Below, piece by piece: positions 28,459-46,608 of a stretch of 64,000 nucleotides of DNA. Position 1 is the stretch's first letter, and each line of letters starts with the position of its first letter. The stretch lies in contig CAZPQW010000014.1 in NCBI GenBank assembly GCA_964588985.1, positions 31,938 through 95,937 of the forward strand, given 5' to 3'. The position numbers were made by a program, and so were the translations under genes. The notes beneath the pieces were generated by a model that was given only the letters and a program-made list of their open reading frames with translations, did not search any database and was not told where the DNA came from. This DNA comes from an uncultured Solirubrobacteraceae bacterium (lineage in GTDB: Bacteria; Actinomycetota; Thermoleophilia; Solirubrobacterales; Solirubrobacteraceae).

Positions 28459-28617
28459 GGCGGTCTCTGCCTGCTCTCGGCATGCGAACTTCCGCTCCCG
28501 ATCTCTGCACGCGTGTTTGCGCTCGCGATCAGTGATCGAATCGCGACCGCACCGCGATTCACAAAACGCCTGCATCCGGACGGATATGCGACTGGCGTGC
28601 GGCGCTAAGTTGAGTAC

Positions 28618-29052
28618 ATGGCCTTCGCGCCTCCAGCACGCCACCTGCTGCGCGCCAAGGACCTGGCCGACGCGCGCTACTTCGAAGCTCTGAGTGTGCA
28701 GGAGATGGCTCACGCCGCTGGGCTCTCGCGCGCGCACTTCAGCCGCGAGTTCCGCCGTGCCTTCGGAGAGTCGCCGCACGCGTATCTGCTCACCAGGCGC
28801 CTCGAGCGTGCGGCTGCGCTGCTGCGGAGCACCGATCGCTCGATCACGGAGATCTGCTTCTCGGTGGGGCTGCGCAGCCTGGGGTCGTTCACCACCAGCT
28901 TCACACGCACGTACGGGATGCCGCCGACTATCTATCGAGCGTCCTTCCCGCCTGCCTCCAGCTACGCACTGATACCCACGTGTGTCCTGCGCGCCTACGG
29001 GCGACCGCAACGCAGCACGTTTCGAGAAGACAGCGACACCGGGGCTGCCTAG
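28618..29052 (+). CDS. AraC-family transcriptional regulator (HTH only)
   Basis: LSRAHFSREFRRAFGESPHAYLLTRRLERAAALL...GSFTTSF. Confidence 0.92.
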   Translation: MAFAPPARHLLRAKDLADARYFEALSVQEMAHAAGLSRAHFSREFRRAFGESPHAYLLTRRLERAAALLRSTDRSITEICFSVGLRSLGSFTTSFTRTYGMPPTIYRASFPPASSYALIPTCVLRAYGRPQRSTFREDSDTGAA

Positions 29053-29090
29053 GATCGCTGGCGACCGGTAAGTTCGACCAGGAGAAACCG

Positions 29091-29510
29091 ATGATCAAAA
29101 TCGCCAACGCGCAGCTGTGGGTCAACGACCAAGAGGAGGCGCTCGCCTTCTACACGCAGAAGGTCGGCATGGAGGTGCGCACCGACGTGACGCTCCCCGA
29201 GATGGGCAACTTTCGCTGGCTGACCGTAGGGCCCGTGGGGCAACCGGACGTGGCGATCGTGTTGATGGCCATCCCCGGCCCGCCGATGATGGATGCCGAC
29301 ACCGCACAGGACGTGCGCGACCTGATGGCCAAGGGCTTCGCAGGCACGGTCTTCCTCACGACCGAGGATTGCCGCGCCTCTTACAATGAACTGAAGAGCA
29401 GGGGCGTGGAGTTCACGGAGGCGCCTGAGGAGCGCCCCTATGGCATCGACTCCGGCTTTCGCGATCCGTCCGGCAACGCGATTCGACTGACGCAGGTCAG
29501 AGGGATGTGA
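29091..29510 (+). CDS. VOC/glyoxalase family protein
   Basis: DQEEALAFYTQK...RWLTV...RPYG...FRDPSGN. RBS AGGAG. Confidence 0.92.
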   Translation: MIKIANAQLWVNDQEEALAFYTQKVGMEVRTDVTLPEMGNFRWLTVGPVGQPDVAIVLMAIPGPPMMDADTAQDVRDLMAKGFAGTVFLTTEDCRASYNELKSRGVEFTEAPEERPYGIDSGFRDPSGNAIRLTQVRGM

Positions 29511-29657
29511 TCGCTGGTCCGCCGTGTCTCGCGGCTGCGACGGATACGCAGGGCGCGGCGGGCCAACTACTTAGTCCAGTGGGTGGCACGTACTGTCGTC
29601 ACATGGGCGTAATGGGTCGATCTGTTCAAGATGTCAGTACAGATCGATCAGACAGGC

Positions 29658-32054: not shown

Positions 32055-32182
32055 GGAGATGCGTTCGACGCCCGTGTTAGGCGGGCTTGCCACGCGCGAC
32101 CGTATACGAGTAAGATCCGTTCAAGCGAGCGGTTCGATCAGATAGGACTTATATGGAGCCGGCGTGAGGTCAGGAGGCGGAT

Positions 32183-34759
32183 GTGGAACGTGCTGCTCGG
32201 GTCGTGCTCGGCGTTGCGCAGAGCGTGCTGGGTGAGCTCGACCTGGAGGTGGTGTTCGATCGGGTCCTGGAGGGTGCTCGTGCGTTGACCGGCGCCCGCT
32301 ATGCGGCGATCGGAGTGCTGGACGAGGTGAAGGTCGGCGTGGGCGTGGAGGCCGAGTTGGCGAGGTTCATCACGGTGGGCATCGACGACGTTACACACGC
32401 GTCGATCGGCGCTCTCCCGCGCGGTCACGGGGTGCTGGGTGAGCTGATCATGAATCCCATGCCGCTGCGCCTCACAGACGTGGGAGCCCATCCGCACTCC
32501 TACGGATTCCCGCACGGCCATCCCCCGATGAAGACGTTCCTGGGTGTCCCCGTGCTGGTCGGCGGGGAGCCCTTCGGGAACCTCTATCTGACCGAGAAGG
32601 TCGAGTGCGAGCCGTTCACCGATGCCGACGAAGAAGCAGCCACGATGCTCGCCAGGATCGCCGGCGTGGCGATCGAGAACGCGCGCCGCTACACCGGCGT
32701 GAGCAAGCGTCGCGAGGAGCTCGAGCGCACGGTCGCGGCGCTCGAAGTCACTACGCAGATATCGCGCGCGATCGGCGACCAGACGGATCTCGACGCGATC
32801 CTCGATCTGGTCGCCAAGCGCGGACGCGCGGTTATCGACGCGCGCATTCTGCTGATCGAGCTGCAGCAGGGCCAAGACCTCGTTGTGGCGGCAGGGGCCG
32901 GTGAGCTCCCGGAAGACCTGATCGGCAGGCGCGTCGGTCTCGAAGGCACCGTCGCTGGCCACGCGCTGCGCACGCGCCGCACTCAGCGCCTGACCGACGA
33001 GCTCAACCGAGCGCGCTTCGAGGAGCACGGTCTCGGTAGTCGTGGGGTCGAGGCCGAGGATGGTCTGATCGTCCCGCTGATCTTCAGGGACCAGACCTAC
33101 GGCGTGCTGCTGGCGGTCGATCGCGTGCAGGGAGGCCCCAGGTTCAATCGTGAGGACGTGCGCCTGCTGGAGGCGTTTGCGGCGAGCGCGGCCACCGCCG
33201 TCGCCACAGCGCGCGCGGTGGCGAGCGACCTGCAGCGCCTCGCCGCGGTGGTGGAATCCTCCAGCGACGCGATCGTGACGGTCGACATGGGTGGTTTGAT
33301 CACGAGCTGGAACTCTGGCGCGGAGGCCATTTATGGCTCCACGCTCGAGGAGATGCTCGGCACAGACGGGACCGTCCTGGTGCCGCAGGAGAAGGCAGCC
33401 GATCGTGTGACCCTCGACAGCATTCTGGCCGGAGGCGAGGGCATCAAGCGCTACGAGACAGTGCGAATGCGCAGTGACGGATCGCGGGTCGAGGTGTCGG
33501 TGAGCGTCTTTGCGATCCGAGGCGCTGATGGAGGTGTCGAGGGAGCAGCCTCGATCGCACGCGACATGACCGAGCGCAAGCAGATGGAGCGCGTGCTCGC
33601 TCAGACCCAAAGGCTGGAGAGCCTCGGACAGCTCGCGGGTGGCATCGCACACGACATGAACAACCTGCTCGCGATCATCCTCAACTACGCGGACTTCGCG
33701 CTCGAGAGCATCGCGGAGGAGCCAGCCGGAGAGGAGGTCCGCGAGATTCGCGCGGCGGCAGAGCGCGCCGGCGCGCTGGTTCGCCAGCTGCTGCTGTTCG
33801 CGCGCCAGGAAGCGGTCTCCGAGCAGGAGCTGGACGTGAGCGAGGTCGTCGGCGAGTTGGAGAAGATGCTCGGCCGCACGCTGGGCGAGCACATCGAGTT
33901 GCGCACGGAGCTCGTGCAGACCCCATGGTCGATCGAGGCGGATCGCGCGCAGGTCGAGCAGGTGGCGATGAATCTGGCGGTGAACGCGCGCGACGCGATG
34001 CCAGACGGGGGCACGTTGACGATCTCCACGACCAACTGCAGGATCGAGCCGGGTACGAGGGACGCTCTTGCGAGTCATGTCGAGGTGGGCGACTACCTGT
34101 GTCTCGAGGTGAGCGACACCGGCGCGGGCATGCCCGCGGAGGTCGTGTCGAAGGCATTCGAGCCGTTCTTCACCACCAAGCCGACCGGATCGGGCACGGG
34201 TCTCGGGCTGGCGACGGTGTACGGCATCGTGACGAAGGCCGGTGGAAGCGTTCAGATCGACTCCGAGCCCGGACTGGGCACAGTCGTGAAGGCGTACTGG
34301 CCGGCTGCCCAGCGGGCCCAGCACGGGGATGTCTCGCTCGTGCTCGCGGACAGCGTCGACCCGACACGCGCCTCGACGGGGGAGACGATCCTGCTCGTCG
34401 AGGACGAGGATGCGCTGCGGGCGATCGTCAAGCGACTGCTGGAAGCTGAGGGTTACAAGGTCCTCGCGGCGGGACTGCCGAGCGCGGCGATCGAGCTGTC
34501 CGAACCACCTGAGCAAAGCATCGCTTTGCTGCTCACTGATCTGGTCATGCCGGGCATGTCCGGCGCGGCGCTGGTGGAGCATATGCGCAAGGTGCGCCCC
34601 ACGCTGCCAGTCGTATATATGTCCGGTTACGTCGCAAGCCCCGACGACGTACCCGAAGGCGCAGTGTTCGTGGGCAAGCCGTTCAAGCGCTCGGAGCTGC
34701 TCGCCGCGGTGGGTAGCGCGCTCGAGAAGCAGCCGCTGTCGCGTGCGCAGCGCGCGTGA
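32183..34759 (+). CDS. Hybrid sensor kinase GAF-GAF-PAS-HisKA-HATPase-REC
   Basis: GAF (HPPMKTFLGVP), PAS (SSSDAI..SWNSGAE), AGGIAHDMNN, EPFFTTK, GTGLGL and LLTDLVMP. RBS AGGAGG. Confidence 0.92.
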   Translation: MERAARVVLGVAQSVLGELDLEVVFDRVLEGARALTGARYAAIGVLDEVKVGVGVEAELARFITVGIDDVTHASIGALPRGHGVLGELIMNPMPLRLTDVGAHPHSYGFPHGHPPMKTFLGVPVLVGGEPFGNLYLTEKVECEPFTDADEEAATMLARIAGVAIENARRYTGVSKRREELERTVAALEVTTQISRAIGDQTDLDAILDLVAKRGRAVIDARILLIELQQGQDLVVAAGAGELPEDLIGRRVGLEGTVAGHALRTRRTQRLTDELNRARFEEHGLGSRGVEAEDGLIVPLIFRDQTYGVLLAVDRVQGGPRFNREDVRLLEAFAASAATAVATARAVASDLQRLAAVVESSSDAIVTVDMGGLITSWNSGAEAIYGSTLEEMLGTDGTVLVPQEKAADRVTLDSILAGGEGIKRYETVRMRSDGSRVEVSVSVFAIRGADGGVEGAASIARDMTERKQMERVLAQTQRLESLGQLAGGIAHDMNNLLAIILNYADFALESIAEEPAGEEVREIRAAAERAGALVRQLLLFARQEAVSEQELDVSEVVGELEKMLGRTLGEHIELRTELVQTPWSIEADRAQVEQVAMNLAVNARDAMPDGGTLTISTTNCRIEPGTRDALASHVEVGDYLCLEVSDTGAGMPAEVVSKAFEPFFTTKPTGSGTGLGLATVYGIVTKAGGSVQIDSEPGLGTVVKAYWPAAQRAQHGDVSLVLADSVDPTRASTGETILLVEDEDALRAIVKRLLEAEGYKVLAAGLPSAAIELSEPPEQSIALLLTDLVMPGMSGAALVEHMRKVRPTLPVVYMSGYVASPDDVPEGAVFVGKPFKRSELLAAVGSALEKQPLSRAQRA

Positions 34760-34829
34760 GGCTCTGTGAGACACGTCGAGTGCTGCGCGTGAAGCTTGCG
34801 GTCGAGCCCGCGAAGCCGATGCTGAGCGT

Positions 34830-35828
34830 ATGAGTCCGCTGCCGCACAGTCTGCGCTCCGACAAGCGGTTGATGACTTACACAGCCGCGGCGATGTACGG
34901 CGCGGCGGTTCTCGATGCGGCGATCGAGGGTCTGCTGCCAGGCGATCCGAGCTTCGCGCTTGCCCCCGCCCTCGTAGCTCTCCCGCTGGTGGCGTTGATC
35001 CTCCTCCTGGGGCCGCGGCTGGCGCGCTGGGCACTCGCGCCGCTCGGCCCACTCGGCGTCGGGCTCATCGCCTACGCAGTGGCCACCACCCCAGGCGCGG
35101 GCGATGGCGCTGTGCTGTACATGTGGCCAGTGCTCTGGACGACGTTCTTTTTCGGACGTCGAGGGGCCGCTTCGATCGTCGCGTGCGTCGGCGTCGCCCA
35201 CGTGCTGACCCTCCTCTCGCTGTCCTCCGCGAGCAGTTATCCCGGGCGTTGGGTCGACGTGATGGTCTCCGTTTGCGTGGTCGCCGCCGTCACCCTGATG
35301 CTCGTCAACCGCAACGAGCAACTTCTTGCACGGCTGACGAGAGAAGCGCGCACAGACGAGCTCACCGGCCTGCTCAACCGACGCGGCTTCGACGAGCGCG
35401 CACTAATCGAGCTGGCACGCGTCAGACGCAACGACCAGTCGATCGCACTGGTGATGTTCGATCTCGACCACTTCAAGCACGTCAACGACGAGTGGGGACA
35501 CGACGTCGGCGATCGGGTGCTCGCTCGCACCGGAGCTGTGCTGGCCGAGTCCTCAAGAGACATCGACGTCGTCGCACGGTTCGGCGGGGAGGAGTTCCTG
35601 GTGCTGCTGCCAGAAAGCGACAGCATCGATGCCGAGGCCTTCGCGGAACGTGTCCGTCTGGCGCTCGCGGAGGGAGCCTCCTCAGGGCTGCCGGCCGTGC
35701 AGGTCAGCGCCGGAGTCGACGCCTCGAGCACGATCGGCGACGTGGAGACGCTGCTGCGACGAGCCGACACGGCACTGTACGACGCGAAGCGGGCCGGCCG
35801 CGACCGCACCGTGGTATTTCAGCGCTAG
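34830..35828 (+). CDS. Membrane diguanylate cyclase
   Basis: Multiple TM helices, TDELTGLLNRR, DLDHFKHVND, RDID I-site and GGEEF. Confidence 0.92.
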   Translation: MSPLPHSLRSDKRLMTYTAAAMYGAAVLDAAIEGLLPGDPSFALAPALVALPLVALILLLGPRLARWALAPLGPLGVGLIAYAVATTPGAGDGAVLYMWPVLWTTFFFGRRGAASIVACVGVAHVLTLLSLSSASSYPGRWVDVMVSVCVVAAVTLMLVNRNEQLLARLTREARTDELTGLLNRRGFDERALIELARVRRNDQSIALVMFDLDHFKHVNDEWGHDVGDRVLARTGAVLAESSRDIDVVARFGGEEFLVLLPESDSIDAEAFAERVRLALAEGASSGLPAVQVSAGVDASSTIGDVETLLRRADTALYDAKRAGRDRTVVFQR

Positions 35829-36274
35829 GCCTGTTGATCCGGATCGATCGATGCTCGCAGGCGTGGCTCAAGCTCACATTCGCTGAGAGGACCTGCGGCC
35901 GTGAGGACGGGCCGCTCGATATCGCGACGAATGTCTGCGAGCAGCGCGGAAAGCTCAGCAGCGCGGTCGGGCGTGGGCCGCGAGAGCGCAAACTCGACGC
36001 TGACGGCCGCCGCGGATGCATCGCCGAAGCCGAACATCCCGAGCGAGCCCGCCAGCATGTGCGCCGCCCTCTGCGCGCTGTCTGTGAGGTCCGCGTCGAG
36101 GCGACCCTCCACCAACGCGTGGGTTGCCTGTTCGATCACGGCCAGACGCTCGTCGACGGCATCGTGCTGGCCCTCCCAAACCGCGGCCAGGGCGTCGGCG
36201 TCCCAGGCGGCGCGGTCGCGACGCGAGGTCCGCGCGGCGCGCTCGCGGGTAGCGGTGTTGGATGGGGCGTACAT
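35825..36274 (-). CDS. Hpt (histidine phosphotransfer) domain protein
   Basis: AQRAAHMLAGSLGMFGFGDAS..A..VE. Start uncertain (36274 or 36295). Confidence 0.8.
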   Translation of the reverse strand: MYAPSNTATRERAARTSRRDRAAWDADALAAVWEGQHDAVDERLAVIEQATHALVEGRLDADLTDSAQRAAHMLAGSLGMFGFGDASAAAVSVEFALSRPTPDRAAELSALLADIRRDIERPVLTAAGPLSECELEPRLRASIDPDQQA

Positions 36275-36440
36275 GGTGGTGCTCTGGTTGAGCATCGGCG
36301 GAAGCGTGCCCCACAGCGAGCGCGACGGTCGTTGCCCGACCAAAGGTCCAGGCGGTTCGATTCGTGCTCTCGGGATTTCGGCGACGGCTGTGGTGGACTA
36401 CGGAGCGCGTGCCCGCCGCGCGCGTCGATGACGAACGTGT

Positions 36441-38258
36441 ATGCCCGACATGGCGCCGATCCGGTCCAGATTCGCGTCGCGGCTGCGCCGCATCGTCGCG
36501 GTGGACGAGCGTTTCGGCCGCGTCGCCGGCGTGGTCGCGACGCTCGTACTGGTGTGCGTGAGCTGGCAGCTGTTCGGCTGGATCCCCGGCAGTCGAGAGG
36601 ATGTCGGAGACTTGCTGATCATCCTCGTCGATGGGGCGGCGGTTGCCGCGTCGTGGTACGCGTCGCGGCGCTGCGCCGAGGCCGGCGGCCTGCGGACGTT
36701 CTGGCGTCTGATGAGCGTCGCACTGCTCGCGGAGGCACTCGGCGACGTCGTGCAGGCGGTCTACGACATCGGCCTGAAGCAGTCCCCGTATCCCTCGTTT
36801 GCGGACCCGTTCTACCTCGCCTTCTACCCGCTGCTGCTGTATGCGCTGTGGCGGGTGCCGGCCCCTTCGGTGACGCGCTCGAGGTTTCTGAGGACGACGC
36901 TCGACGGCGCGACGATCGTCGTCGGCGGAGGCGCGATCGTGTGGTACTTCGTGCTCGGTCCGACGACGCTCGAGACTGGTCACAGCGCCCTGGGGGTGGG
37001 CGTGTCGGCGGCGTTCCCGATCGGCGACCTGTGCCTGCTGGCGGGCATCGCGGCCGTGCTGCTGCGTCAGAGCCCGCGTGCGCTCCGTGCCCCGCTCGCG
37101 CTGATCACCGTCGCGGTGCTGCTCGGCATCGTGGCTGACGTGTTCTACGGGTACGGGCAGTTGCACGGCACCTATGCGCCCGGAGGCTGGGTCGACATGA
37201 TGTACCTGCTCGAGTTCGCGGCGTTCGCGCTGGCGGGAGCGAGCCAGAGGAGCATTCGGCGCGACGATCCGGACGCGCTCGTCGACGTCACGAGCCGATT
37301 CAGGTCGCATGCGAGCTGGCTTCCGTACCTGAGCGTGGCGGTCGGCCTGTGCTTCGTGCTCGGCGTGGAGCGCGAAGACAACTTCTTCCCGAACGTGAGC
37401 CTTCTTCTGATCGTGGTCGTGCTCGCGGTGCTCGTCGCCGCTCGCCAGTACGCAGCCCAGCGGGAGCTCGTGCGGGCCGAGGCGGCGCTGCGCGAGAGCG
37501 AGCGCCTGAAGGACGAGCTGCTGTCGGTGGTGGGGCACGAGCTGCGGACCCCCCTGACCTCGATCCGCGGCTCGCTGGGGCTGCTGGACGGCGGCGTTCT
37601 CGGTGAGCTCCCGCCGGAGGCGGCGAACATGGTCGCGGTGGCGGTTCTCAACACCGACCGGCTGGTGCGGCTGATCAACGACATCCTCGACGTCGAGCGC
37701 ATGAACGCCGGCGTCCTGCAACTCGAGCCGACCGCGATGGACGCACGCTTGCTGGTGCGCGGGGCGGTGCAGACCGTGCAGGCGATGGCCGACGCGGCCG
37801 GTGTGACGCTGCGCTGCGAGGTCGACCCGCTGACGGTGTCGGCCGACGGTGATCGGGTCGTGCAGGCTCTTGTGAACCTGCTCGGCAATGCGGTGAAGTT
37901 CTCCGCGCGTGGCGGCGTGGTGAGCGTGAGTGCGCGCCGGCGGGAGCACTGTGCGCTGTTCTCGGTCCGCGACGGCGGTCGCGGCATACCCGCGGACCGG
38001 CTGGAGAGCATCTTCGAGCGCTTCCGTCAGGTCGACGCCTCCGATGCGCGCGAGAAGGGCGGTACCGGTCTCGGTCTGCCGATCGCGCGCGGGATCGTGG
38101 AGCGCCACGGCGGACGCATGTGGGCGGAGAGCGGGGAGGGGCAGGGCGCCACGTTCCGCTTCACTCTGCCGCTGGCCAACGAGCCGAACGAGCGGAGTGT
38201 GCGGGATGCGAGCCGCCCTGGCCGGCATCGCGGGCAGCTGACGGGGAGCGCCACATGA
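36441..38258 (+). CDS. Membrane sensor histidine kinase
   Basis: Multi-TM N-terminus (PYPSFADPFYL), HELRTPL, NLLGNAVKF and GGTGLGL. Confidence 0.92.
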   Translation: MPDMAPIRSRFASRLRRIVAVDERFGRVAGVVATLVLVCVSWQLFGWIPGSREDVGDLLIILVDGAAVAASWYASRRCAEAGGLRTFWRLMSVALLAEALGDVVQAVYDIGLKQSPYPSFADPFYLAFYPLLLYALWRVPAPSVTRSRFLRTTLDGATIVVGGGAIVWYFVLGPTTLETGHSALGVGVSAAFPIGDLCLLAGIAAVLLRQSPRALRAPLALITVAVLLGIVADVFYGYGQLHGTYAPGGWVDMMYLLEFAAFALAGASQRSIRRDDPDALVDVTSRFRSHASWLPYLSVAVGLCFVLGVEREDNFFPNVSLLLIVVVLAVLVAARQYAAQRELVRAEAALRESERLKDELLSVVGHELRTPLTSIRGSLGLLDGGVLGELPPEAANMVAVAVLNTDRLVRLINDILDVERMNAGVLQLEPTAMDARLLVRGAVQTVQAMADAAGVTLRCEVDPLTVSADGDRVVQALVNLLGNAVKFSARGGVVSVSARRREHCALFSVRDGGRGIPADRLESIFERFRQVDASDAREKGGTGLGLPIARGIVERHGGRMWAESGEGQGATFRFTLPLANEPNERSVRDASRPGRHRGQLTGSAT

Positions 38259-38626
38259 GGTCGCGCCTGCTGCTCGTCGACGACGCCGAGGACATCCGCG
38301 CGATCGCGCGGATGAGCCTCGAGCGGGTGGGGGGCTGGGAGGTGGTGTCCGCGCCCGGAGGGGCGGAGGCGCTGCGTGCTCTGCGCGAGGACGGACCGTT
38401 CGACGCGGTGCTGCTGGACGTGATGATGCCCGGCATGGACGGTCCGGCGACGCTCGCGCGTATGCGCGAGGACGGGCTGGCGGCGGAGGTGCCGGTGGTC
38501 TTCCTCACCGCCAAGGCGACGGGCGCCGATTGTCGCAGGCTGGAGGCGCTTGGCGGCGCCGGAGTGCTCCCCAAGCCGTTCGATCCGATGGATCTGCCGC
38601 GGGAGCTCGAGCGACTGCTGGAGTAG
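38255..38626 (+). CDS. Single-domain response regulator
   Basis: LLLVDD, LLDVMMPGMDG, FLTAK and KPFDP. ATGA overlap with the kinase. Confidence 0.92.
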   Translation: MRSRLLLVDDAEDIRAIARMSLERVGGWEVVSAPGGAEALRALREDGPFDAVLLDVMMPGMDGPATLARMREDGLAAEVPVVFLTAKATGADCRRLEALGGAGVLPKPFDPMDLPRELERLLE

Positions 38627-38685
38627 TCGCTGCGCTTCGCTGTACGCTCTTTATGTGGAAGGAGCCTGAGATGTGGAACGAGGCT

Positions 38686-39024
38686 TCACGAGTGCAGGGC
38701 CTGCTCGATCGCGACGCGCAGCTGCTCGAGCGTGTACGGCTTGACGAGGCTCGCGGCGAACTGGACGTCGAGGTCGGCGAGCTCCTGCGGCGGGGCGGCG
38801 ACGCTCGCGCAGATCAGCGGCAGCTCGGGCACGGCGAGCGAGGCCGCCTGCGCGAACACGGCGCCGACGGGCGCGGCCGGCTCGAGGATGAGTACGTCGG
38901 CGCTCGTGAGGTGTTCGGGGCCGGGGATCGCCACGGCGATCGGCTCGTGACCGAGGCGGGCGACCATCCGCTCGAGCAGCCGGCGAACGTCCTCTTGGGG
39001 CTCGCAGATCAGGATTCGTGCCAT
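38686..39024 (-). CDS. Atypical (pseudo-)receiver domain protein
   Basis: ARILICEP...DVLILEP...LICAS...VKPYTLEQL. Glu occupies the phospho-Asp position. Confidence 0.72.
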   Translation of the reverse strand: MARILICEPQEDVRRLLERMVARLGHEPIAVAIPGPEHLTSADVLILEPAAPVGAVFAQAASLAVPELPLICASVAAPPQELADLDVQFAASLVKPYTLEQLRVAIEQALHS

Positions 39025-39082
39025 GTGGCGATGATCGGCGGCGCCGGCGAGATTTCGGGGTGTGGGGCGGTATGAAAGGCGT

Positions 39083-39772
39083 ATGACCCGCGCGCGGGTG
39101 CTCGTGGTGGACGACGACTCGGTCGTGCGCCAGCTGCTGCACGGGATGCTCGAGCGCGCCGGCTACGAGGTCAGCGAGGCGATCGACGGGCGCGCGGGGC
39201 TGCGCGAGCTGTACGCCTCCTCGACAGACCTGGTGATCCTCGACGTGGAGATGCCGGAGCTCGACGGCTGGGCGACGCTCGAGCGCATCCGCGATCTGAG
39301 CGACGTGCCGGTGCTGATGCTGACAGCGCGCGACACGGAGCTCGAGCGCGTGCGCGGCCTGCGCGGCGGCGCCGACGACTACATGATCAAGCCCTTCGGC
39401 AATCAGGAGCTGCTCGCCCGCGTCGATGCGCTGCTGCGGCGCGCGCGCCCGCGGGTCGAGGAGCGCACGACCTATGCGGACGCACGTGTGAGCATCGACT
39501 TCGCGCAGCGCGCCGTTCGCTACGACGAGCGCGACGTGAGCCTCACGCCGCTCGAGTTCAAGCTGCTGAGTGCGTTCGTCCACAACCCCAACCACGTGCT
39601 CACCCGCGACCAACTGCTGGAGCTCGTGTGGGGCGACGCGTTCGGTGTGTCCTCAGAGCAGGTGAAGCTGTATGTGGGCTACGTGCGCCACAAGCTCGAC
39701 CCCGACGCCCCTGCCACCACTCCGATCGAGACGGTGCGGGGGTTCGGATATCGCTACAGGCGGCCGGCGTGA
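39083..39772 (+). CDS. OmpR/PhoB-family response regulator
   Basis: VLVVDDD, ILDVEMP, GADDYMIKPF, LTPLEFKLL and ETVRGFGYR. Confidence 0.95.
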   Translation: MTRARVLVVDDDSVVRQLLHGMLERAGYEVSEAIDGRAGLRELYASSTDLVILDVEMPELDGWATLERIRDLSDVPVLMLTARDTELERVRGLRGGADDYMIKPFGNQELLARVDALLRRARPRVEERTTYADARVSIDFAQRAVRYDERDVSLTPLEFKLLSAFVHNPNHVLTRDQLLELVWGDAFGVSSEQVKLYVGYVRHKLDPDAPATTPIETVRGFGYRYRRPA

Positions 39773-39798: not shown

Positions 39799-40293
39799 TC
39801 AGTCCTCGCCGAGCCCCTTGAGGTCTTCCAAGTCCCGCGGGCGACCGGCTGCGCGCTTCATCGCTCGCAGGTGATCGAGGCCACACACTCGCACCGGCAA
39901 GTCGTCGATCGTGCTCTCAATGGCCTCGCGGTCGAGAGCGCCGTACAGATCCTCGAACTCGATCCCGCTGAGCCATTGCATGACGTCGAGACGTCCGAGA
40001 TCGGTATGCAGGCAGAAGTTACCGCCCATGCTGAGATCGGCCGCACGCGTGGGATCGGCCGGCATCTCCTCCGGCTTGAAGTCAGCCGTGTCCAGAACGG
40101 TCGCGTCGAGATCGCGGAGCATCTCGGCCAGACGCTCCAGGTTCTCCGCAGCGGGGTTGGGCACGATGTCCAGATCCTTGGTGACACGGATGAAGCCATG
40201 TGCATTCACTGCGAAGCCGCCGACGACGATGTGATCGATGCTGCGCTCGTGCAGTGCGCGCAGCAGCGGGAATGGATCAAGCGCCTCGGGCAT
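39799..40293 (-). CDS. Nucleotidyltransferase-fold protein (AbiEii/MenT/DUF6036-like)
   Basis: VVGGFAVNAHG..RVTKDLD...MKRAAGRPRDLED. Confidence 0.8.
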   Translation of the reverse strand: MPEALDPFPLLRALHERSIDHIVVGGFAVNAHGFIRVTKDLDIVPNPAAENLERLAEMLRDLDATVLDTADFKPEEMPADPTRAADLSMGGNFCLHTDLGRLDVMQWLSGIEFEDLYGALDREAIESTIDDLPVRVCGLDHLRAMKRAAGRPRDLEDLKGLGED

Positions 40294-40471
40294 GACGGAA
40301 TGCCTCGGCGAAGCGGTTTGCGAAACGGGCGAGCGCGGCGGCCTCTTCGAGATTTGCGCTCACGCCCCGCGCTCGGTCGCGCGTCACCTGCGCGCGGGTG
40401 GCTCGCTCGTTGCGAGCGATCTCCTCAGGCGTCCAACGCCCTTTGGGTCTTGCCTTTGACTCCGCAGCCAT
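40277..40471 (-). CDS. Small helical protein, putative antitoxin
   Basis: 64 aa; overlaps the NTase start by 17 bp; TACAAT lies 7 nt before the ATG. Confidence 0.65.
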   Translation of the reverse strand: MAAESKARPKGRWTPEEIARNERATRAQVTRDRARGVSANLEEAAALARFANRFAEAFRHARGA

Positions 40472-40562
40472 GGCTCGCATTGTAGATAGAGCCGCGGCCC
40501 GAGCGGGAGTGGGCTATCCAGAACGGACTGAAGGTTGAGCCCCGAGAGGCGTTTGGTGCCGG

Positions 40563-41123
40563 CTATCTGCTCTCGCTCGCTGTCTGGGCCAGCTGATCGA
40601 GGCGCGCGTGGCGGGGGTCCTCCGCGCCGAGGATCCGGTGCAGCCAGTGTTGGATGTCCGGCATGTCGAGGTCTTCGACGCAGACGAGCATCTGCTCTAT
40701 GTCGAGCCAGTCCTTCGGGCGGTCGAACACGACCTTGCAGGCAAGCAGGTGCTCGGGCCCGAGGATCGGTATCCGCTGATCGCCGAACGGGACGATGCGC
40801 GTTTGTTTGCGCATGGCTTGATGGATCTGGTCGTAGGCCAGGAACACGTCGATGGGGGTGCGGGTCCACGACAGCCGGCACTGGCCATCGCGCTGAACGG
40901 CCGCTGGGTCCACCTGGGTGTCGACGCCGAGCGGCTGGAGCGCTAGCTGAATCCGAGGGAAGTCGTTGGGAGCGAGGAAGACGTTGATGTCGATGTCGTC
41001 GGTGGCGCGTGGCTCGGCGTAGTAGGCGAGTGCGAGCGCGCCACCGAACGCGTGCGAGATGGACGCGTTCGCGAGCGCGTGGTGGATGTCGAGGATCTTG
41101 TCGGGAAGCGTGGGCTCGCTCAT
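40563..41123 (-). CDS. Second nucleotidyltransferase-fold protein
   Basis: FGGALALAYYAEPRATDDID...LACKVVFDRPKDWLD. ATGA overlap with the upstream gene. Confidence 0.8.
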   Translation of the reverse strand: MSEPTLPDKILDIHHALANASISHAFGGALALAYYAEPRATDDIDINVFLAPNDFPRIQLALQPLGVDTQVDPAAVQRDGQCRLSWTRTPIDVFLAYDQIHQAMRKQTRIVPFGDQRIPILGPEHLLACKVVFDRPKDWLDIEQMLVCVEDLDMPDIQHWLHRILGAEDPRHARLDQLAQTASESR

Positions 41124-41599
41124 GCGGGTTGGGAGCGCAGGTGTGGAAAGCGCACTTGCGGGCCGCGTCGGGATGATGGGAGGTGGTCGACTAGCAGCAG
41201 CAGGTCGCGCAGCGTCTCTCCCCGCTGCTGTGGCGTGGCGCTGGCCCACCGTCCGGCCGCACGTGCGCTGTGGGAGATCTGTGAGCTGTGGGGGGCGAGC
41301 GTGTCAAGCAGCAGGGCTCGCAACAACGGTCGCGGCTCGCGCCCCGCGGCGATCTCGGCCAGCAGTTCCCCGGCCGCACGATCGGCGTCCTCGCCGGCGA
41401 CGGGCGCTCCGGCACGCCGAGCTGCCTTGCGTAGCTCTACGGGAGTGAGCGGCTTGGATGAGCGGTCGCAAGCTTGGGAGATGACGTCGGGCGTCAACGT
41501 GCGAAAGGTGGCGAGTGTGCGGCTGCGCGGGCCGGCGGCAGTCGAGTGCGACTCCCGCACCTCCCAGGTTCCGCTGGGGCGACCGGTCACATAAGTCAT
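41120..41599 (-). CDS. Hypothetical protein, putative antitoxin/DNA-binding partner
   Basis: 159 aa; translationally coupled to the NTase; TATGAT just upstream. Confidence 0.7.
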   Translation of the reverse strand: MTYVTGRPSGTWEVRESHSTAAGPRSRTLATFRTLTPDVISQACDRSSKPLTPVELRKAARRAGAPVAGEDADRAAGELLAEIAAGREPRPLLRALLLDTLAPHSSQISHSARAAGRWASATPQQRGETLRDLLLLVDHLPSSRRGPQVRFPHLRSQPA

Positions 41600-41620
41600 A
41601 GTGGGTAATCATACCACTAT
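41598..41620. promoter_or_regulatory. Inverted-repeat operator over the -10 and start codon
   Basis: ATAGTGG-N9-CCACTAT. Confidence 0.6.
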
Positions 41621-41630
41621 ATAGGCGGAC

Positions 41631-42080
41631 CTAGGCGCAGTTGCTGTTGAGCGTTTTGACGGACTTGACCGTCGAGGTCGCGGTCCAGGACCGGTAAATG
41701 GCGCTGACGCGGTAGTAGTAGGTCGTGGAGTAAGCGAGCGAGCCGCTTTTGTCGGTGTAGACGGTTAGTTCGGCGTTGACGCTCGCGACCGCGGTGTAGG
41801 TGCCGTTGCTGGACGTGGCGCGTTCGAGGCTGTAGGACGTGACGTAACTCGAGCTCGAAGCTGCCCAGTCCACTTCGACTTCGGGCGTTTTTTTGATACG
41901 GCAGTTGACCTGGAGAGTGTTGAGTCCCGTGGGGGCGGCAAGCGTGGACGTGGCGATCGTGATCGGACCGCCTTTCGCGGTCTTGTTGAAGACGGCGAAC
42001 GCGACCTGCGCGCTCGTGAGCGCCGCCAGGGCGAGGAGCGCAAGGATGGCGAAACCGGTTAGCGGGCGTCCGCTGCGCAT
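41631..42080 (-). CDS. Secreted FN3-like protein with a SipW-class signal peptide
   Basis: Hydrophobic N-terminus ending VAFA/VF..., LAAPTGL, VDW, SYSLER and YYYRVSA; two Cys. Confidence 0.8.
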   Translation of the reverse strand: MRSGRPLTGFAILALLALAALTSAQVAFAVFNKTAKGGPITIATSTLAAPTGLNTLQVNCRIKKTPEVEVDWAASSSSYVTSYSLERATSSNGTYTAVASVNAELTVYTDKSGSLAYSTTYYYRVSAIYRSWTATSTVKSVKTLNSNCA

Positions 42081-42085
42081 GATCG

Positions 42086-42697
42086 TCAGGACCGCCCCTC
42101 CGCTTTCGCGGTCTCGCGGCGTGCGCCGATGCCCCAGATCTCCCAGAGCACCATCAGCGCCAGCAGCGCGGGTACCACGAAGATCGTCGCTACATGCAGC
42201 GCACGGCTGCGCATGACGTTGATCAGATAGCCGAGGTGAGGCACGACGGCGCGCATCTGCCATGCGGTGTTGCCTTCCAGGCGCGCGGTCCACGGGTCGT
42301 TGGCGTTGTTGGCGTCGCCGCGCGTCTGCACCAGCGGGTGCGCGCCACCCTGCAGGATGCGCACGATGCGGTGCGTCTCGACCTGGTGGATGCCGACGGG
42401 CACCGTGTAGGAGATCACCTGCCCGACTTTCACGGCGCTGACGGGCTCGGGGGTGACGATCACCATGTCGCCCGGCGAGAAGGTCGGGCGCATGCTGCCG
42501 GAGAGCACGGTGACGGGCCGGTAGAGCCCGAGGCGGGGCAGCACGGCGATCGTGAGGAAGAACGTGAGGGCCAGCGCGAGGAGCGCGCGCTGGCCCCACG
42601 TTCCCCAGGCGCGGAGGGTCGTGCCGACCGTCCGCGCCTGGGAGCCATGAACCGTGTCCAGGTGGTGCTGCTCGAGAGGGATCCTGAGCGTGTTCAT
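42086..42697 (-). CDS. sipW: Signal peptidase I, SipW/ER-type (S26B)
   Basis: VLSGSMRP..PGD...VGQVISY...ETHRIV...TRGDAN..ND; Ser-His type rather than Ser-Lys. Confidence 0.9.
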   Translation of the reverse strand: MNTLRIPLEQHHLDTVHGSQARTVGTTLRAWGTWGQRALLALALTFFLTIAVLPRLGLYRPVTVLSGSMRPTFSPGDMVIVTPEPVSAVKVGQVISYTVPVGIHQVETHRIVRILQGGAHPLVQTRGDANNANDPWTARLEGNTAWQMRAVVPHLGYLINVMRSRALHVATIFVVPALLALMVLWEIWGIGARRETAKAEGRS

Positions 42698-42709
42698 GGC
42701 GGGTTGCTC

Positions 42710-43327
42710 CTACTTGTTGCCGGCGACGCGCTGCGTGCCGAGGAAGCCGTAGGAGATCGTGGATGACTGCCCCTGGAGCGTGTTCGGCGCGATCGTGGGC
42801 AGTGTGAGCGTCACGCGCAGGTGGTCGGTCGAGCCGGTGGTCAGCGACGAGAGACCGGTGAGGGCCATGCTCGAGCCGATCACCGCATGCGACGCCAGCA
42901 CCGTGCTGGTCGTGCCTCCGCACGTGTACGTGTACGCCGGCGAGGTGCCTGCCTCTGTCCACGCGGTCGAGCACTTCTCGATGGTCATCTGCAGGCCATT
43001 GGTGACGTCGGTGTCCAGCAGCGAGCTCGGTGAGGCGGTGGTGGTGAGCACGATCGAGGACAGGTTGTCGGCGGTGCCGGTGCCGTTGTTGATGAGGTCG
43101 ACCGAGCGCTGGATCGTGTCACCGGGGACCACGTTGGACGCGCCGATCGTGAGCCGGTTGGCCGCGCCGGTCGTGCCGAGCGCGATCGAGACGGTTCCCG
43201 AGGAGATCGTGTGACTGGCCGAGGTCGAACTGGTGAACGTGGCGAACGTGCCCAATCCAGCCATGGCCGCGGTGGCGCCGACAACTGCGAAGGAGCCGAG
43301 CAGCCGCTTCATCGTCTTCTGGTTCAT
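42710..43327 (-). CDS. TasA/CalY (camelysin)-family secreted protein
   Basis: GLGTFATFTS...TISSGTVSI, NVVPGDTIQRSVDLINNG and NTLQGQSSTISYGFLGTQ. RBS AAGGA. Confidence 0.85.
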   Translation of the reverse strand: MNQKTMKRLLGSFAVVGATAAMAGLGTFATFTSSTSASHTISSGTVSIALGTTGAANRLTIGASNVVPGDTIQRSVDLINNGTGTADNLSSIVLTTTASPSSLLDTDVTNGLQMTIEKCSTAWTEAGTSPAYTYTCGGTTSTVLASHAVIGSSMALTGLSSLTTGSTDHLRVTLTLPTIAPNTLQGQSSTISYGFLGTQRVAGNK

Positions 43328-43402
43328 TTGAGACCCATCCTTGAGTTGGAGAACTTGACCTCGACAAGATCTCCCGCGCCGGTTTGCGACTCGGAGGGGT
43401 CC

Positions 43403-43421
43403 GGTATGAGACGGGTATGAG
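43403..43421. promoter_or_regulatory. 11-bp-period direct repeat; candidate winged-helix (OmpR/SARP) binding site
   Basis: GGTATGAG-ACG-GGTATGAG in the tasA/trxB divergent region. Confidence 0.5.
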
Positions 43422-43477
43422 CCTGAAGGCGCCCTCGATCGGCCCGCGCCCTTTACACGCTCGCTAGCGTTTCGGTT

Positions 43478-45172
43478 GTGTCCGAGCCCGACACCTCTCA
43501 CCCGCCGGCCGTGAGCGAGCGTCGCCCGCGCCGCCCGGTGATCCTCGCGGTCGACGACGAGCCCGCGGTGCTCGCGGCCGTCTCGCGTGATCTGCGCCGC
43601 GGCTTCGGCGAGCGCTACCGGATCATGCGCGGGTCCTCGGGCGCGGAGGCGCTCGAGCTGCTCGCGGAGATCCGCAGGCGCGGCGAGCAGGTGGCGCTGC
43701 TCGTGGCCGACCAGCGCATGCCCGGCATGTCGGGAACCGACTACCTCGTGCAGGCCCGCCAGGTGGTGCCGGAGGCAAAGCGCGTGCTGCTGACCGCCTA
43801 TGCGGACACCGAGGCGGCGATCGCGGCGATCAACGACGTGGCGCTCGACTACTACCTGCTGAAGCCCTGGGACCCGCCCGAGGAGCAGCTGTTCCCGGTC
43901 GTGGAGGACCTGCTCACCACGTGGGAGTCGGGCGCGGCGCTCGAGTCGGGCGGGGTGCGGGTGATCGGCCACCGCTTCTCAAAGGAGTCGCACGACCTGC
44001 GCGACTTCCTCGCACGCAACCGCGTGCCCGCGCGTTGGCTGGACATCGAACGCGACGGCGAGGCGCGCGAGCTGTTGACGGTCGCGGGCGTGGACGCCGG
44101 TGGCCTGCCTGTGGCGCTCCTGGAGGACGGCTCGGTGCTCGAGCGTCCCACCATCCTCGAGCTGGCGGAGCGGATCGGCGTGGCGCTGCAGCCGCTGGCC
44201 GACCACTACGACCTCGTGATCGTCGGCGGCGGCCCGGCGGGTCTCGCGGCGGCTGTGTATGGCGCGTCGGAGGGGCTGCGCACGGTGATGGTCGAGCGCG
44301 AGGCGCCCGGCGGGCAGGCGGGGCAGTCGAGCCGGATCGAGAACTACCTGGGTTTCCCCGCGGGTCTGTCCGGATCGGATCTCGCCCGCCGCGCGACCGA
44401 CCAGGCCCGGCGTCTGGGGGCGGAGCTGCTGACGATCAAGGACGCGACCGCGCTGCGCGTGGAGGGCTCGGGTCGGATCGTGGAGCTCTCTGGAGGCGGC
44501 GCGCTGAGCGCGAGCTGCGTGATCGTCGCCTCGGGGGTCTCATACCGCCAGCTCGACGCGCCGGGCTTCACCGCATGCACCGGCTCGGGCATCTACTACG
44601 GCGCGGCGCTGACCGAGGCGCGCGCGTGCACCGACCAGCACGTGGTGGTGATCGGGGGCGCGAACTCCGCGGGGCAGGCGGCGGTTTACTTCTCCGGCTA
44701 CGCCTCGAAGGTGTCGATGCTGGTGCGCGCGGACTCGCTGGCGAAGTCGATGTCGCACTACCTGATCGAGCAGATCGCGGCATTGCCCAACATCGACGTG
44801 CGCACCGGCGCCGAGGCGATCGCCGCAGAGAGCGAGGACGGGCGCCTGCGCGCGCTTCGCATCCGCGACGCGAGCGGCGCGGAGACACTCGAGGAGGTGG
44901 ACGCGTGCTTCGTGTTCGTCGGCGCGGCGCCGCGTACCGACTGGCTGGAGGGCGTCGTCGCGCGTGACGAGCGCGGCTTCATCCTCGCGGGCACGGAGGT
45001 GCGCGAGCGTGGCTGGCCGCTGAAGCGCGATCCCTATGTTCTGGAGACGAGCGTGCCGGGCGTTTTTGTCGCGGGCGACGTGCGCGCGCGCTCGATCAAG
45101 CGCGTGGCGAGCGCGGTGGGGGAGGGGTCGATGGCGGTGTCGCTGATCCACGAGTACCTCGCGAGCGCATGA
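43478..45172 (+). CDS. Receiver domain + glutaredoxin-like + thioredoxin-reductase-like FAD oxidoreductase
   Basis: LAVDDE, VADQRMP, VGGGPAG, SRIENYLGFP, IGGANSAGQAA and FVAGDVR...RVASAVGEG. Confidence 0.9.
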   Translation: MSEPDTSHPPAVSERRPRRPVILAVDDEPAVLAAVSRDLRRGFGERYRIMRGSSGAEALELLAEIRRRGEQVALLVADQRMPGMSGTDYLVQARQVVPEAKRVLLTAYADTEAAIAAINDVALDYYLLKPWDPPEEQLFPVVEDLLTTWESGAALESGGVRVIGHRFSKESHDLRDFLARNRVPARWLDIERDGEARELLTVAGVDAGGLPVALLEDGSVLERPTILELAERIGVALQPLADHYDLVIVGGGPAGLAAAVYGASEGLRTVMVEREAPGGQAGQSSRIENYLGFPAGLSGSDLARRATDQARRLGAELLTIKDATALRVEGSGRIVELSGGGALSASCVIVASGVSYRQLDAPGFTACTGSGIYYGAALTEARACTDQHVVVIGGANSAGQAAVYFSGYASKVSMLVRADSLAKSMSHYLIEQIAALPNIDVRTGAEAIAAESEDGRLRALRIRDASGAETLEEVDACFVFVGAAPRTDWLEGVVARDERGFILAGTEVRERGWPLKRDPYVLETSVPGVFVAGDVRARSIKRVASAVGEGSMAVSLIHEYLASA

Positions 45173-46608
45173 GCCACCCGAGCGTCGATCAGCTGCGCGA
45201 GGTCGACCTGTTCGAGGGGCTCACCGATGAGGAGCTGGAGCGGTGGGCACAGGCGGCGCAGGTGCGCGAGCTCGCGCCCGGGACGCCGGTGTCCGAGCAG
45301 GGCAAGCCCTCGCCGGCCTTCCATCTCGTCCTCTCCGGCTCGCTCGAGGCATACGCGATCGACCCCGATGGGCGCGCGGAGCCGGTGGGCGAGCACAGAG
45401 CGCCGACGTGGGTGGGGGCGATCGCGGTGCTCACGGGAGGCGTGTCGAACGTACGCATGGTGGCCCTGGGCGAGGTCACGATCGCGGCGGTCGAGCCCGA
45501 AGAGTTCATCGAGCTGGCGCTCGCGCAGCGCCAAGTGTTCGAGCGCGTGATGGCGCAGGTGCGCCCGGTGGTCGGCCGGATAACCGCGGTGGCGGCCGAC
45601 CGCGAACGGCTGGCCGGTCTCGGCACGATGGCCGCGGGCCTTGCACACGAGCTCAACAACCCCGCCTCGGCGGCACGCCGCGCAGCGTCGGATCTCGCGG
45701 AGGCGCTCGCGGTGCTCGCGTCCACGATCGGGCACTTCGTCGAGTCCGGAGTGACACGCGAGGAGGCGCAGCAGCTGGTGGAACTTCAGCGCCAGGCCCT
45801 GTCGCAGTGCTCGGCGCGCAGCGCGCTCGACGCGTTGGATGCGGCCGATGCGGAGGACGAGTTGCGCGACGCGATCGAAGACCTCGGTGTGGAGGAGTCG
45901 TGGAAGCTCTCCGAGCCCCTTTCGATGGCTGGCGTGGACGCGGCCTGGCTGCAGCGGGTGAGCGGCCTTGCGGGCACCGCCACTCCCGCCGCGCTGCAGT
46001 GGGTCGCCGCATCGCTGACGGCTCAGAAACTTGCCGCTGAGCTGGCGGAGTCAACCCAGCGGATGAGCGCGCTCGTGGGGGCGGTCAAGTCCTACGCGTA
46101 CATGGACCGTGGCGCACTCGTCGAGACCGACATCCACGAGGGCCTCGAGACCACGCTCACGGTGCTCGGGCACAAGCTCAAGCACACCCACATCGAGGTG
46201 GTGCGCGAGTACGACCGCACGCTGCCGAAGATCACGGTCAACGGCGGCGAGCTCAACCAGGTGTGGACGAACCTGCTCGACAACGCCATCCAGGCGCTCG
46301 GCGAGACCGGCACGATCACGATCTCCACGAGCCGCGAGGGGCCGTGCGTGCGCGTCGACATCGCCGACGACGGCCCGGGAATCGAGCCCGCGGTGCGCGA
46401 GCGCATCTTCGAGCCGTTCTTCACCACCAAGGACGTCGGGCAGGGCACCGGGCTCGGCCTCGACACGGCGCGGCGGATCGTCCGCGACCGCAACCGCGGC
46501 TCGATCGACGTCGCGAGCGAGCCGGGGCGCACCGTGTTCCACGTTCGGCTGCCCGTGCAGAGCGCACTACCATCGACCCAAGCCAGCGAAGGAGGTCAGG
46601 CCGCATGA
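45169..46608 (+). CDS. cNMP-binding-domain histidine kinase
   Basis: VDLFEGL cNMP domain, AGLAHELNNP, LNQVWTNLLDNA and EPFFTTK..GTGLGL. Confidence 0.9.
   Translation: MSHPSVDQLREVDLFEGLTDEELERWAQAAQVRELAPGTPVSEQGKPSPAFHLVLSGSLEAYAIDPDGRAEPVGEHRAPTWVGAIAVLTGGVSNVRMVALGEVTIAAVEPEEFIELALAQRQVFERVMAQVRPVVGRITAVAADRERLAGLGTMAAGLAHELNNPASAARRAASDLAEALAVLASTIGHFVESGVTREEAQQLVELQRQALSQCSARSALDALDAADAEDELRDAIEDLGVEESWKLSEPLSMAGVDAAWLQRVSGLAGTATPAALQWVAASLTAQKLAAELAESTQRMSALVGAVKSYAYMDRGALVETDIHEGLETTLTVLGHKLKHTHIEVVREYDRTLPKITVNGGELNQVWTNLLDNAIQALGETGTITISTSREGPCVRVDIADDGPGIEPAVRERIFEPFFTTKDVGQGTGLGLDTARRIVRDRNRGSIDVASEPGRTVFHVRLPVQSALPSTQASEGGQAA

Follow-up and report, generated by a model that had tools for sequence, protein, structure and literature searches.

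TasA-type systems and the three-gene cassette

TasA-type fibers are a main scaffold of Bacillus biofilms, and archaeal relatives of these fibers have recently been solved. Here, we analyzed a cassette of three genes, designated P1, P2, and P3, located in a 64,000-nucleotide stretch of DNA (the window) from an uncultured bacterium of the Solirubrobacteraceae, a family belonging to the Thermoleophilia in Actinomycetota. P1 encodes a candidate major subunit of the TasA/camelysin family, P2 a SipW-like signal peptidase I of the endoplasmic reticulum (ER)/archaeal type, and P3 an accessory protein with one FN3 domain (Table 1). A described counterpart is the tapA-sipW-tasA operon of Bacillus subtilis. 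In the cited sections of the published accounts, TasA fibers form by donor-strand exchange with TasA residues 28–38 as the donor strand, the groove of a TasA subunit must be filled before the subunit can extend its own strand, and the N-terminus of TapA resembles the TasA donor strand (PMC9674648). TapA itself has a complete immunoglobulin (Ig) fold and donates its N-terminus, and an action beyond initiation is considered unlikely there (PMC10151520). The archaeal bundling pili (ABP; AbpA/AbpB of Pyrobaculum calidifontis) and other members of the TasA superfamily (AbpX, Tafi, and cannulae) are likewise described as TasA-related jelly rolls that polymerize by donor-strand complementation; for the bundling pili, an accessory is proposed to provide the first strand and possibly to display distal domains (PMC9245690). 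At the AbpX loci, a peptidase of the TIGR02228 type is described alongside components predicted to be minor or to form the tip (bioRxiv 10.64898/2026.01.04.697558).

The present cassette resembles the B. subtilis operon in that its three genes encode a TasA/PF12389 subunit, a dedicated ER/archaeal-type peptidase, and an accessory. The accessory resembles TapA in having an N-terminus similar to the donor strand of the subunit and a complete Ig-like sandwich for a body (compare PMC9674648 and PMC10151520, in the sections cited). However, the genes here run subunit-peptidase-accessory and not tapA-sipW-tasA, P1 (205 aa) is shorter than Bacillus TasA and carries a Cys pair, P3 is unlike TapA in being an FN3 protein of 120 residues when mature, stapled by Cys, and the host is an actinobacterium of the Thermoleophilia type. 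The archaeal bundling pili share the fold and the presumed mode of polymerization, but in the sections cited, Wang et al. found no dedicated peptidase in the ABP operon (PMC9245690), whereas here the peptidase gene lies between those of its two putative substrates. Unlike AbpA, P1 is recognized by Pfam directly, and the accessory here is a single FN3. There is also a likeness to the tip or adaptor subunits of chaperone-usher pili (FimH-type), in which strand complementation attaches an end subunit that can bear a functional domain; a propeller-bearing variant of P3, described below, fits this comparison. The present system differs from chaperone-usher pili in lacking an usher and a periplasmic chaperone, in its monoderm host, and in its folds, which are unrelated to theirs; moreover, its accessory gives a strand instead of receiving one.

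The cassette is a well-supported member of the TasA-type fiber systems with a non-homologous, unnamed FN3 helper, and it is not new in kind. The original prediction, made from the DNA letters, knew of no characterized example in this lineage. In full-text searches, with supplements (including the homologue list of Wang et al.) outside their scope, neither a study of a TasA-SipW system in Thermoleophilia nor a SipW-linked helper of the FN3 type came up. The novelty was overstated: relatives of P1 are already annotated as TasA family proteins, Wang et al. (2022) mention PF12389 homologues in Actinobacteriota (PMC9245690), and a 2026 preprint places the TasA homologues of Bacillota and Actinomycetota in one cluster (10.64898/2026.01.04.697558), as far as the cited sections of both sources go.

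Families and folds of the three proteins

The three genes lie on the minus strand, are co-oriented, and are separated by gaps of 12 and 5 bp, in agreement with the layout first proposed. A Shine-Dalgarno-like AGGA or GGAG occurs upstream of the start of every one of them. They are real genes rather than chance open reading frames (ORFs), because P1 has 3,631 relatives and P3 has 94, and because the gene order recurs in other genomes. A scan of positions 41300–43600 gave no promoter-like site and one terminator-like site, which lies inside P1 on the wrong strand and is no more than shuffled sequences give; the boundaries of the operon are thus drawn from gene spacing only.

P1 matched the Pfam family PF12389 (Peptidase_M73, TasA/camelysin) at 34.6 bits, above the cut-off of 22.5, over residues 14–97 and profile positions 9–86 of 196, and it is the sole match to this family in its genome. 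The match to TIGR04088 (cognate_SipW signal peptide) was marginal (19.2 bits; cut-off, 19). These were the two hidden Markov model searches that the original prediction had recommended, and both returned P1. The motifs on which that prediction was based, GTFATFT...SSGTVSI and N..PGD...NNG, are present, as is a single Cys pair (C119 and C136). The 3,631 relatives were found in a large protein collection; the best 120 of them are 76–100% identical to P1, and several of these carry the NCBI name “TasA family protein [Solirubrobacteraceae bacterium]” or the JGI name “spore coat-associated protein N.” In the 31-row P1 alignment described below, A29 and F31 hardly vary, and cleavage after A29 is the probable event. 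By analogy with TasA residues 28–38, as given in the cited section of PMC9674648, residues 30–47 of P1 may be the donor strand of the mature subunit.

The fold of P1 was modeled with AlphaFold2 (AF2) from an alignment of 31 rows (15 of the 120 listed database matches and 16 translations from genome loci); in this monomer model, the predicted local distance difference test (pLDDT) score is < 50 at residues 7–41. The original prediction had staked itself on a TasA fold appearing in such models, and the best match in PDB was indeed monomeric TasA (5OF2; Foldseek E 3.5e-4, template modeling scores 0.49/0.52), which was also the only Foldseek match at E ≤ 1e-3. In VIA-align, the P1 model superposed on 5OF2 with Z 10.1 and a root-mean-square deviation of 2.4 Å over 124 residues, and on 5OF1 with Z 9.7, and the next best were unrelated beta-sandwiches at Z 8.3.

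P2 matched TIGR02228 (archaeal/ER-type signal peptidase I) at 78.4 bits (cut-off, 51.85), which agrees with the ER-type Ser/His signal peptidase proposed earlier. P2 and human SEC11A (7p2p) align at E 7.8e-7 and share the SGSM, HR, and GDxN motifs. The position of the SGSM Ser is Ala in the variant chain 9rjb_A, and this Ser is presumably the catalytic residue of P2.

P3 had no NCBIfam match at E ≤ 1, and Pfam gave a sub-threshold PhoD_N alone, with no PF00041. The AF2 model (pLDDT 85) consists of a leader helix at 8–22, a region at 25–50 that is unstructured in the monomer, and a seven-strand sandwich at 51–149. Nearly all of the top 50 Foldseek rows were FN3 domains, and there were 130 matches at E ≤ 1e-3. 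This result, together with the alignment of the N-termini described in the next section, bears out the initial description of P3 as an FN3-like protein with a P1-like N-terminus (AFAVF...TIATSTL). The 94 relatives of similar length are all unnamed or “hypothetical,” and their organism names, where given, are metagenome bins of Solirubrobacteraceae. In the alignment, which took in 62 of the 94, A27, C60, W72, Y83, R87, G93, T120, Y121, Y123, W132, T143, and C148 are invariant, and A29, F31, G37, G38, T41, T46, and L47 are nearly so. Because the Cys pair is invariant, a disulfide C60-C148 probably ties the first FN3 strand to the C-terminus. P3 can thus be described as a leader, a free N-terminal segment of about 20 residues, and a single FN3. 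W72, R87, D110, W132, S140, and C148 are kept in an alignment of 12 P3-type modules from distant lineages, in which W72, R87, W132, and C148 do not vary at all.

P3 was also considered as a member of the TapA (YqxM) family. This was rejected, as no model matched and its body is an FN3 and not the V-set Ig described for TapA (PMC10151520, in the section cited). A search with the P3 family profile against 1.84 billion representatives was abandoned as a guide to the N-terminal module. It returned 26,534 proteins and was swamped by generic multi-FN3 proteins, the best being multi-FN3 giants, and just one full-length relative (151 aa) occurred in the best 150 of the 26,534. A search for longer, fused forms of P3 gave 15 proteins, all of them generic PF00041 multidomain proteins with no close fusion among them, and fusions of the P3 module were found instead by reading loci. 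No LPxTG-like motif is present in P1, P2, or P3.

Predicted strand donation from P3 to P1

When the profiles of the two proteins were compared with hhalign, residues 1–48 of P3 aligned with residues 1–47 of P1 (probability 85.6%, E 5.6e-6). The alignment runs from the leader across the Ala-x-Ala|x-Phe junction (29/30) into the mature protein, of which it takes in the first 18 residues. The original prediction suggested modeling oligomers to look for strand donation. We predicted a complex of two copies of mature P1 (30–205) and one of mature P3 (30–149), with P3 as the scored partner. The score was 0.80, the best of three controls scored 0.00, and the verdict is that the model supports binding; of 157 solved complexes, 116 attained this mark, as did 2 of 215 mismatched pairs. 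The runs agreed in at least 96% of contacts, the pLDDT of the partner was at least 92, and 140–144 contacts were confident.

The confident interface comprises P3 30–47, 79, and 129–134 and P1 43–50, 57, 59–69, 72–79, and 174–199, with the closest P1:P3 pairs at 195:35, 190:41, 185:44–47, and 66:43–45. All of P3 30–47 is in this interface, pairing antiparallel with P1 185–196 and contacting P1 66–67. In the model, this segment is inserted antiparallel between the 59–69 strand and the C-terminal strand of P1, which is donor-strand geometry, and the heteromeric prediction thus gave the kind of contact that had been anticipated. Of the 25 conserved mature positions of P1, 14 fall within its 50 interface residues (of 176; hypergeometric p 0.0016). 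In silico, P3 appears TapA-like in role: its N-terminus resembles the donor strand, and it is predicted to complement the subunit.

The reading that we favor, and which we consider reasonably probable, is that the cassette is an operon for a TasA-type donor-strand fiber in which P3 is a TapA-like starter or cap. P1 and P3 would be exported by Sec, and their leaders would be removed after Ala29, most likely by the co-encoded membrane peptidase P2. Mature P1 would be a TasA-fold beta-sandwich that, by homology, polymerizes head to tail, with the free N-terminal strand of one subunit completing the sandwich of the next. Mature P3 would be a complete, disulfide-stapled FN3 with no strand-accepting groove, and would for that reason sit at one end only. 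Its 18-residue N-terminal strand, a mimic of that of P1, would plug the groove of the first P1; the filled groove would free the own strand of this P1 to enter the next P1, and so onward, and P3 would thereby start or cap one end of the fiber. The biological role of such a fiber may be in the matrix or in adhesion.

Several observations weigh against this reading. The Pfam match covers just the N-terminal 84 residues of P1. As an orthologue of B. subtilis TasA, P1 was rejected (equivalog NF046066, 21.6 bits; cut-off, 450) and is therefore a family member and not an orthologue; P2 was similarly rejected as an orthologue of Bacillus SipW (equivalog NF046067, 63.6 bits; cut-off, 190). A phmmer search of P1 against the PDB sequences returned nothing at E ≤ 10, so the fold comparison was needed, and the quality of the P1 model used for it is moderate (mean pLDDT 66.9; core blocks, 70–86). 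TIGR04088 does not match P3, and the leaders of both P1 and P3 end in an Ala-x-Ala-like sequence that a general signal peptidase could also cut. The interface shows no enrichment in conserved positions of P3 (8 of 35, p 0.45). The complex was predicted from our own alignments and with three chains, unlike the calibration, and because a TasA fiber structure is already solved, its pass may partly reflect likeness to that structure. The score concerns P3 against P1, and self-polymerization of P1 is argued from homology. P3 has no recognizable cell anchor such as LPxTG.

Some of these points would also suit a cassette that makes no fiber, in which P1 and P3 act independently, either secreted or at the cell surface, P1 as a soluble TasA-fold protein and P3 as a small FN3 binder, and the two share only a dedicated signal peptidase. 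TasA is described as stable also as a soluble monomer (PMC9674648, in the section cited), the Pfam match of P1 is N-terminal only, and the fold match is moderate. However, such an arrangement does not account for an N-terminus of P3 that copies that of P1, for a donor-strand-like complex that scored high while its controls scored zero, for the concentration of conserved P1 residues in the groove, or for the linkage of P1, SipW, and the P3 module across distant families, fusions included. We regard it as improbable.

Distribution of the cassette and fusions of the P3 module

In a sample of 301 genomes taken evenly across the phylum, P1 matched at E ≤ 1e-3 in 22 genomes, this one included, and close relatives (E ≤ 1e-46, 46–65% identity) occurred in 10 other genomes. 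The three genes are separate in 7 of these 10 (G126, G084, G010, G040, G112, G068, and G231), the P3 module is fused to the C-terminus of SipW in one (G216), and the remaining two allow no judgment, as their contigs stop after P1. The linkage of P1, SipW, and P3 thus recurs across the phylum, including other families of Actinomycetota, in favor of the original prediction, which had suggested a survey of synteny across Thermoleophilia. In a 201-genome sample of the family to which the window belongs, 18 genomes matched P1, this one included, and the two close matches were both in the same genus. The distribution of close relatives is patchy: they occur in 2 of the 6 other members of the genus, and copies with 60–65% identity occur in other families of the phylum. 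In TasA-SipW loci of the phylum that are more distant, SipW is followed by different accessories, of which some are larger and have TasA-like domains and others share only a P1-like N-terminus, which indicates that the general layout is common and that the FN3 helper marks one subfamily. The G+C content is 0.61–0.69 across the cassette (41500–43500) and 0.70–0.74 on either side. This dip and the patchy distribution make horizontal spread of the cassette possible, and the dip could alternatively be explained by a Ser/Thr-rich composition.

The two same-genus loci differ in structure. G433 has the same cassette, with 82, 69, and 57% identity, whereas in G322 the order is P1, a 527-residue P3-like protein (L053 814–2394, minus strand), and then SipW. 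The P3-like protein has a P3/P1-type N-terminus and an FN3 that is split by an inserted 7-bladed beta-propeller of the lactonase type (PF10282, 53.4 bits with a cut-off of 21.7; TIGR02276, 57.1 bits with a cut-off of 27.85); the profile matches this protein at its two ends. Fusions of SipW with FN3 were also read in G138 and G053, which belong to another family, and TIGR02228 was above its cut-off for G138. Two lineages of the phylum that are unrelated to each other therefore have SipW fused with the P3 module; the fusion in G216 ends in a Pro/Thr/Glu-rich stretch. Their layout suggests that the fused SipW cleaves itself from its substrate.

These variants bear on two other roles for P3. In the first, the fiber is the same and P3 is a transient, chaperone-like primer that opens the first P1 and is then displaced or lost. 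Roske et al. call TapA a “specific chaperone” that is unlikely to act beyond initiation (PMC10151520, in the section cited), P3 is a small protein that lacks an anchor motif, and the SipW fusions suggest a low, peptidase-like stoichiometry. However, the predicted interface is large (the 140–144 confident contacts include residues 79 and 129–134 of the FN3 body, with the invariant W132) and better fits a stable complex, and the 7-bladed propeller on the P3 module of G322 makes more sense as a displayed end domain; we consider a transient primer unlikely. In the second, P3 is a cell-proximal anchor that ties the fiber base to the envelope through its FN3 and is not a distal tip or adhesin. TapA has been reported to co-localize with the membrane (PMC10151520, in the section cited), and fused P3 modules start out tethered to membrane-bound SipW. 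P3, however, has no LPxTG, C-terminal membrane segment, or wall-binding domain and should be soluble once cleaved, and the propeller-bearing variant resembles an adhesin or cargo domain; an anchoring role therefore seems to us very unlikely.

The starter-or-cap reading can be carried a step further, as a speculative and rather doubtful proposal. Actinomycetota may use the P3 module, with its leader, donor-strand mimic, and Cys-stapled FN3, as a portable plug to set the number of TasA-type fibers and to decorate their end of origin, with SipW fusions providing stoichiometric control of initiation and other fusions providing display of cargo. If this were true, a SipW-fused module would be cut off by its own peptidase, giving one nucleator per peptidase molecule and a built-in stoichiometric control of fiber initiation, and other fusions, such as the beta-propeller of G322, would display cargo at the fiber end.

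Table 1. Coordinates of the cassette and of related fused ORFs. Positions are those of the window unless a locus is named
Feature	Position	Strand	Remarks
P1, candidate TasA/camelysin-family major subunit	42710..43327	-	205 aa, ATG
P2, SipW-like ER/archaeal-type signal peptidase I	42086..42697	-	203 aa, ATG
P3, accessory protein: leader, extended N-terminal segment, and one FN3	41631..42080	-	149 aa, ATG
Shine-Dalgarno-like AAGGATGG	43335..43342	-	7 nt upstream of P1 start; read from 40 nt upstream
P1 signal peptide, residues 1–29	43241..43327	-	TIGR04088; probable cleavage after A29 (...GTFA|TF...)
P1 residues 30–47, putative donor strand	43187..43240	-	extended/low-confidence in monomer; aligns with P3 30–48
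P3 residues 30–47, predicted donor strand entering P1	41940..41993	-	complex prediction and hhalign
P3 FN3 domain, residues 51–149	41634..41930	-	block pLDDT 92–98; invariant Cys60...Cys148
Single ORFs with SipW-type peptidase and P3-type leader/strand/FN3	L054 6237-7556; L055 6159-7331; L026 2116-3285	+	loci read

Genomic neighborhood and implications

The original prediction placed the cassette near a large cyclic di-GMP (c-di-GMP) cluster. GGDEF/EAL genes do lie 6–16 kb from it, at 25762–35828, so the nearness is confirmed. They belong to a signaling-rich stretch (25762–39772) on the lower-coordinate side beyond P3, which contains two CHASE-GGDEF-EAL proteins, a GGDEF protein, hybrid kinases, an Hpt protein, receivers, and an OmpR-type regulator. 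However, the flanks in four other genomes share nothing beyond the cassette, except for an OmpR-type regulator beside P3 in the same-genus G433. As the neighborhood is not conserved with the cassette, the association was not upheld and a functional c-di-GMP link was dropped.

Within this region, 25762–38626 forms a dense signaling block in which the CHASE-GGDEF-EAL and GGDEF proteins are accompanied by a hybrid kinase of the GAF-PAS type, a further kinase, an Hpt protein, and a receiver. Just upstream of P1, on the plus strand, 43478–45172 encodes a receiver fused to a thioredoxin-reductase-like flavoprotein (pyridine-nucleotide-disulphide oxidoreductase), and 45169–46608, overlapping it by 4 nt, encodes a histidine kinase with a cyclic-nucleotide-binding domain; the two form an unusual two-component pair divergent from P1. 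Between the OmpR-type regulator and P3, about 1.8 kb of the minus strand (39799–41599) holds two weak nucleotidyltransferase-like genes (DUF6036 and AbiEii, below the Pfam cut-offs), each overlapped upstream by a small ORF (40277–40480 and 41120–41599). To judge from their arrangement, these look like inserted toxin-antitoxin-type pairs; the segment is absent from the G433 locus.

The same genome has a second SipW-type locus (L003 883–1401 and 1462–3345, both plus strand; contig C16 of G000, about 59.2–61.6 kb). It encodes a 172-aa protein with a leader ending in ...GAYAFTAS, followed by a 627-aa protein whose N-terminus is an archaeal-type signal peptidase (TIGR02228, 65 bits; cut-off, 51.85) and whose long C-terminal part gave a near-threshold match to DUF5305 alone (28 against 29).

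To our knowledge, no TasA-type fiber has been studied in Actinomycetota, a dominant soil and rhizosphere phylum. The cassette of this soil actinobacterium is about the smallest complete version, with one subunit, one peptidase, and one 120-residue helper. Its small size and the confident model of the contact between helper and subunit make it a convenient system for fiber initiation without the chaperone-usher machinery, and hints about the organization of initiation and end-display come from the natural fusions of SipW with the helper and from the helper that bears a propeller.

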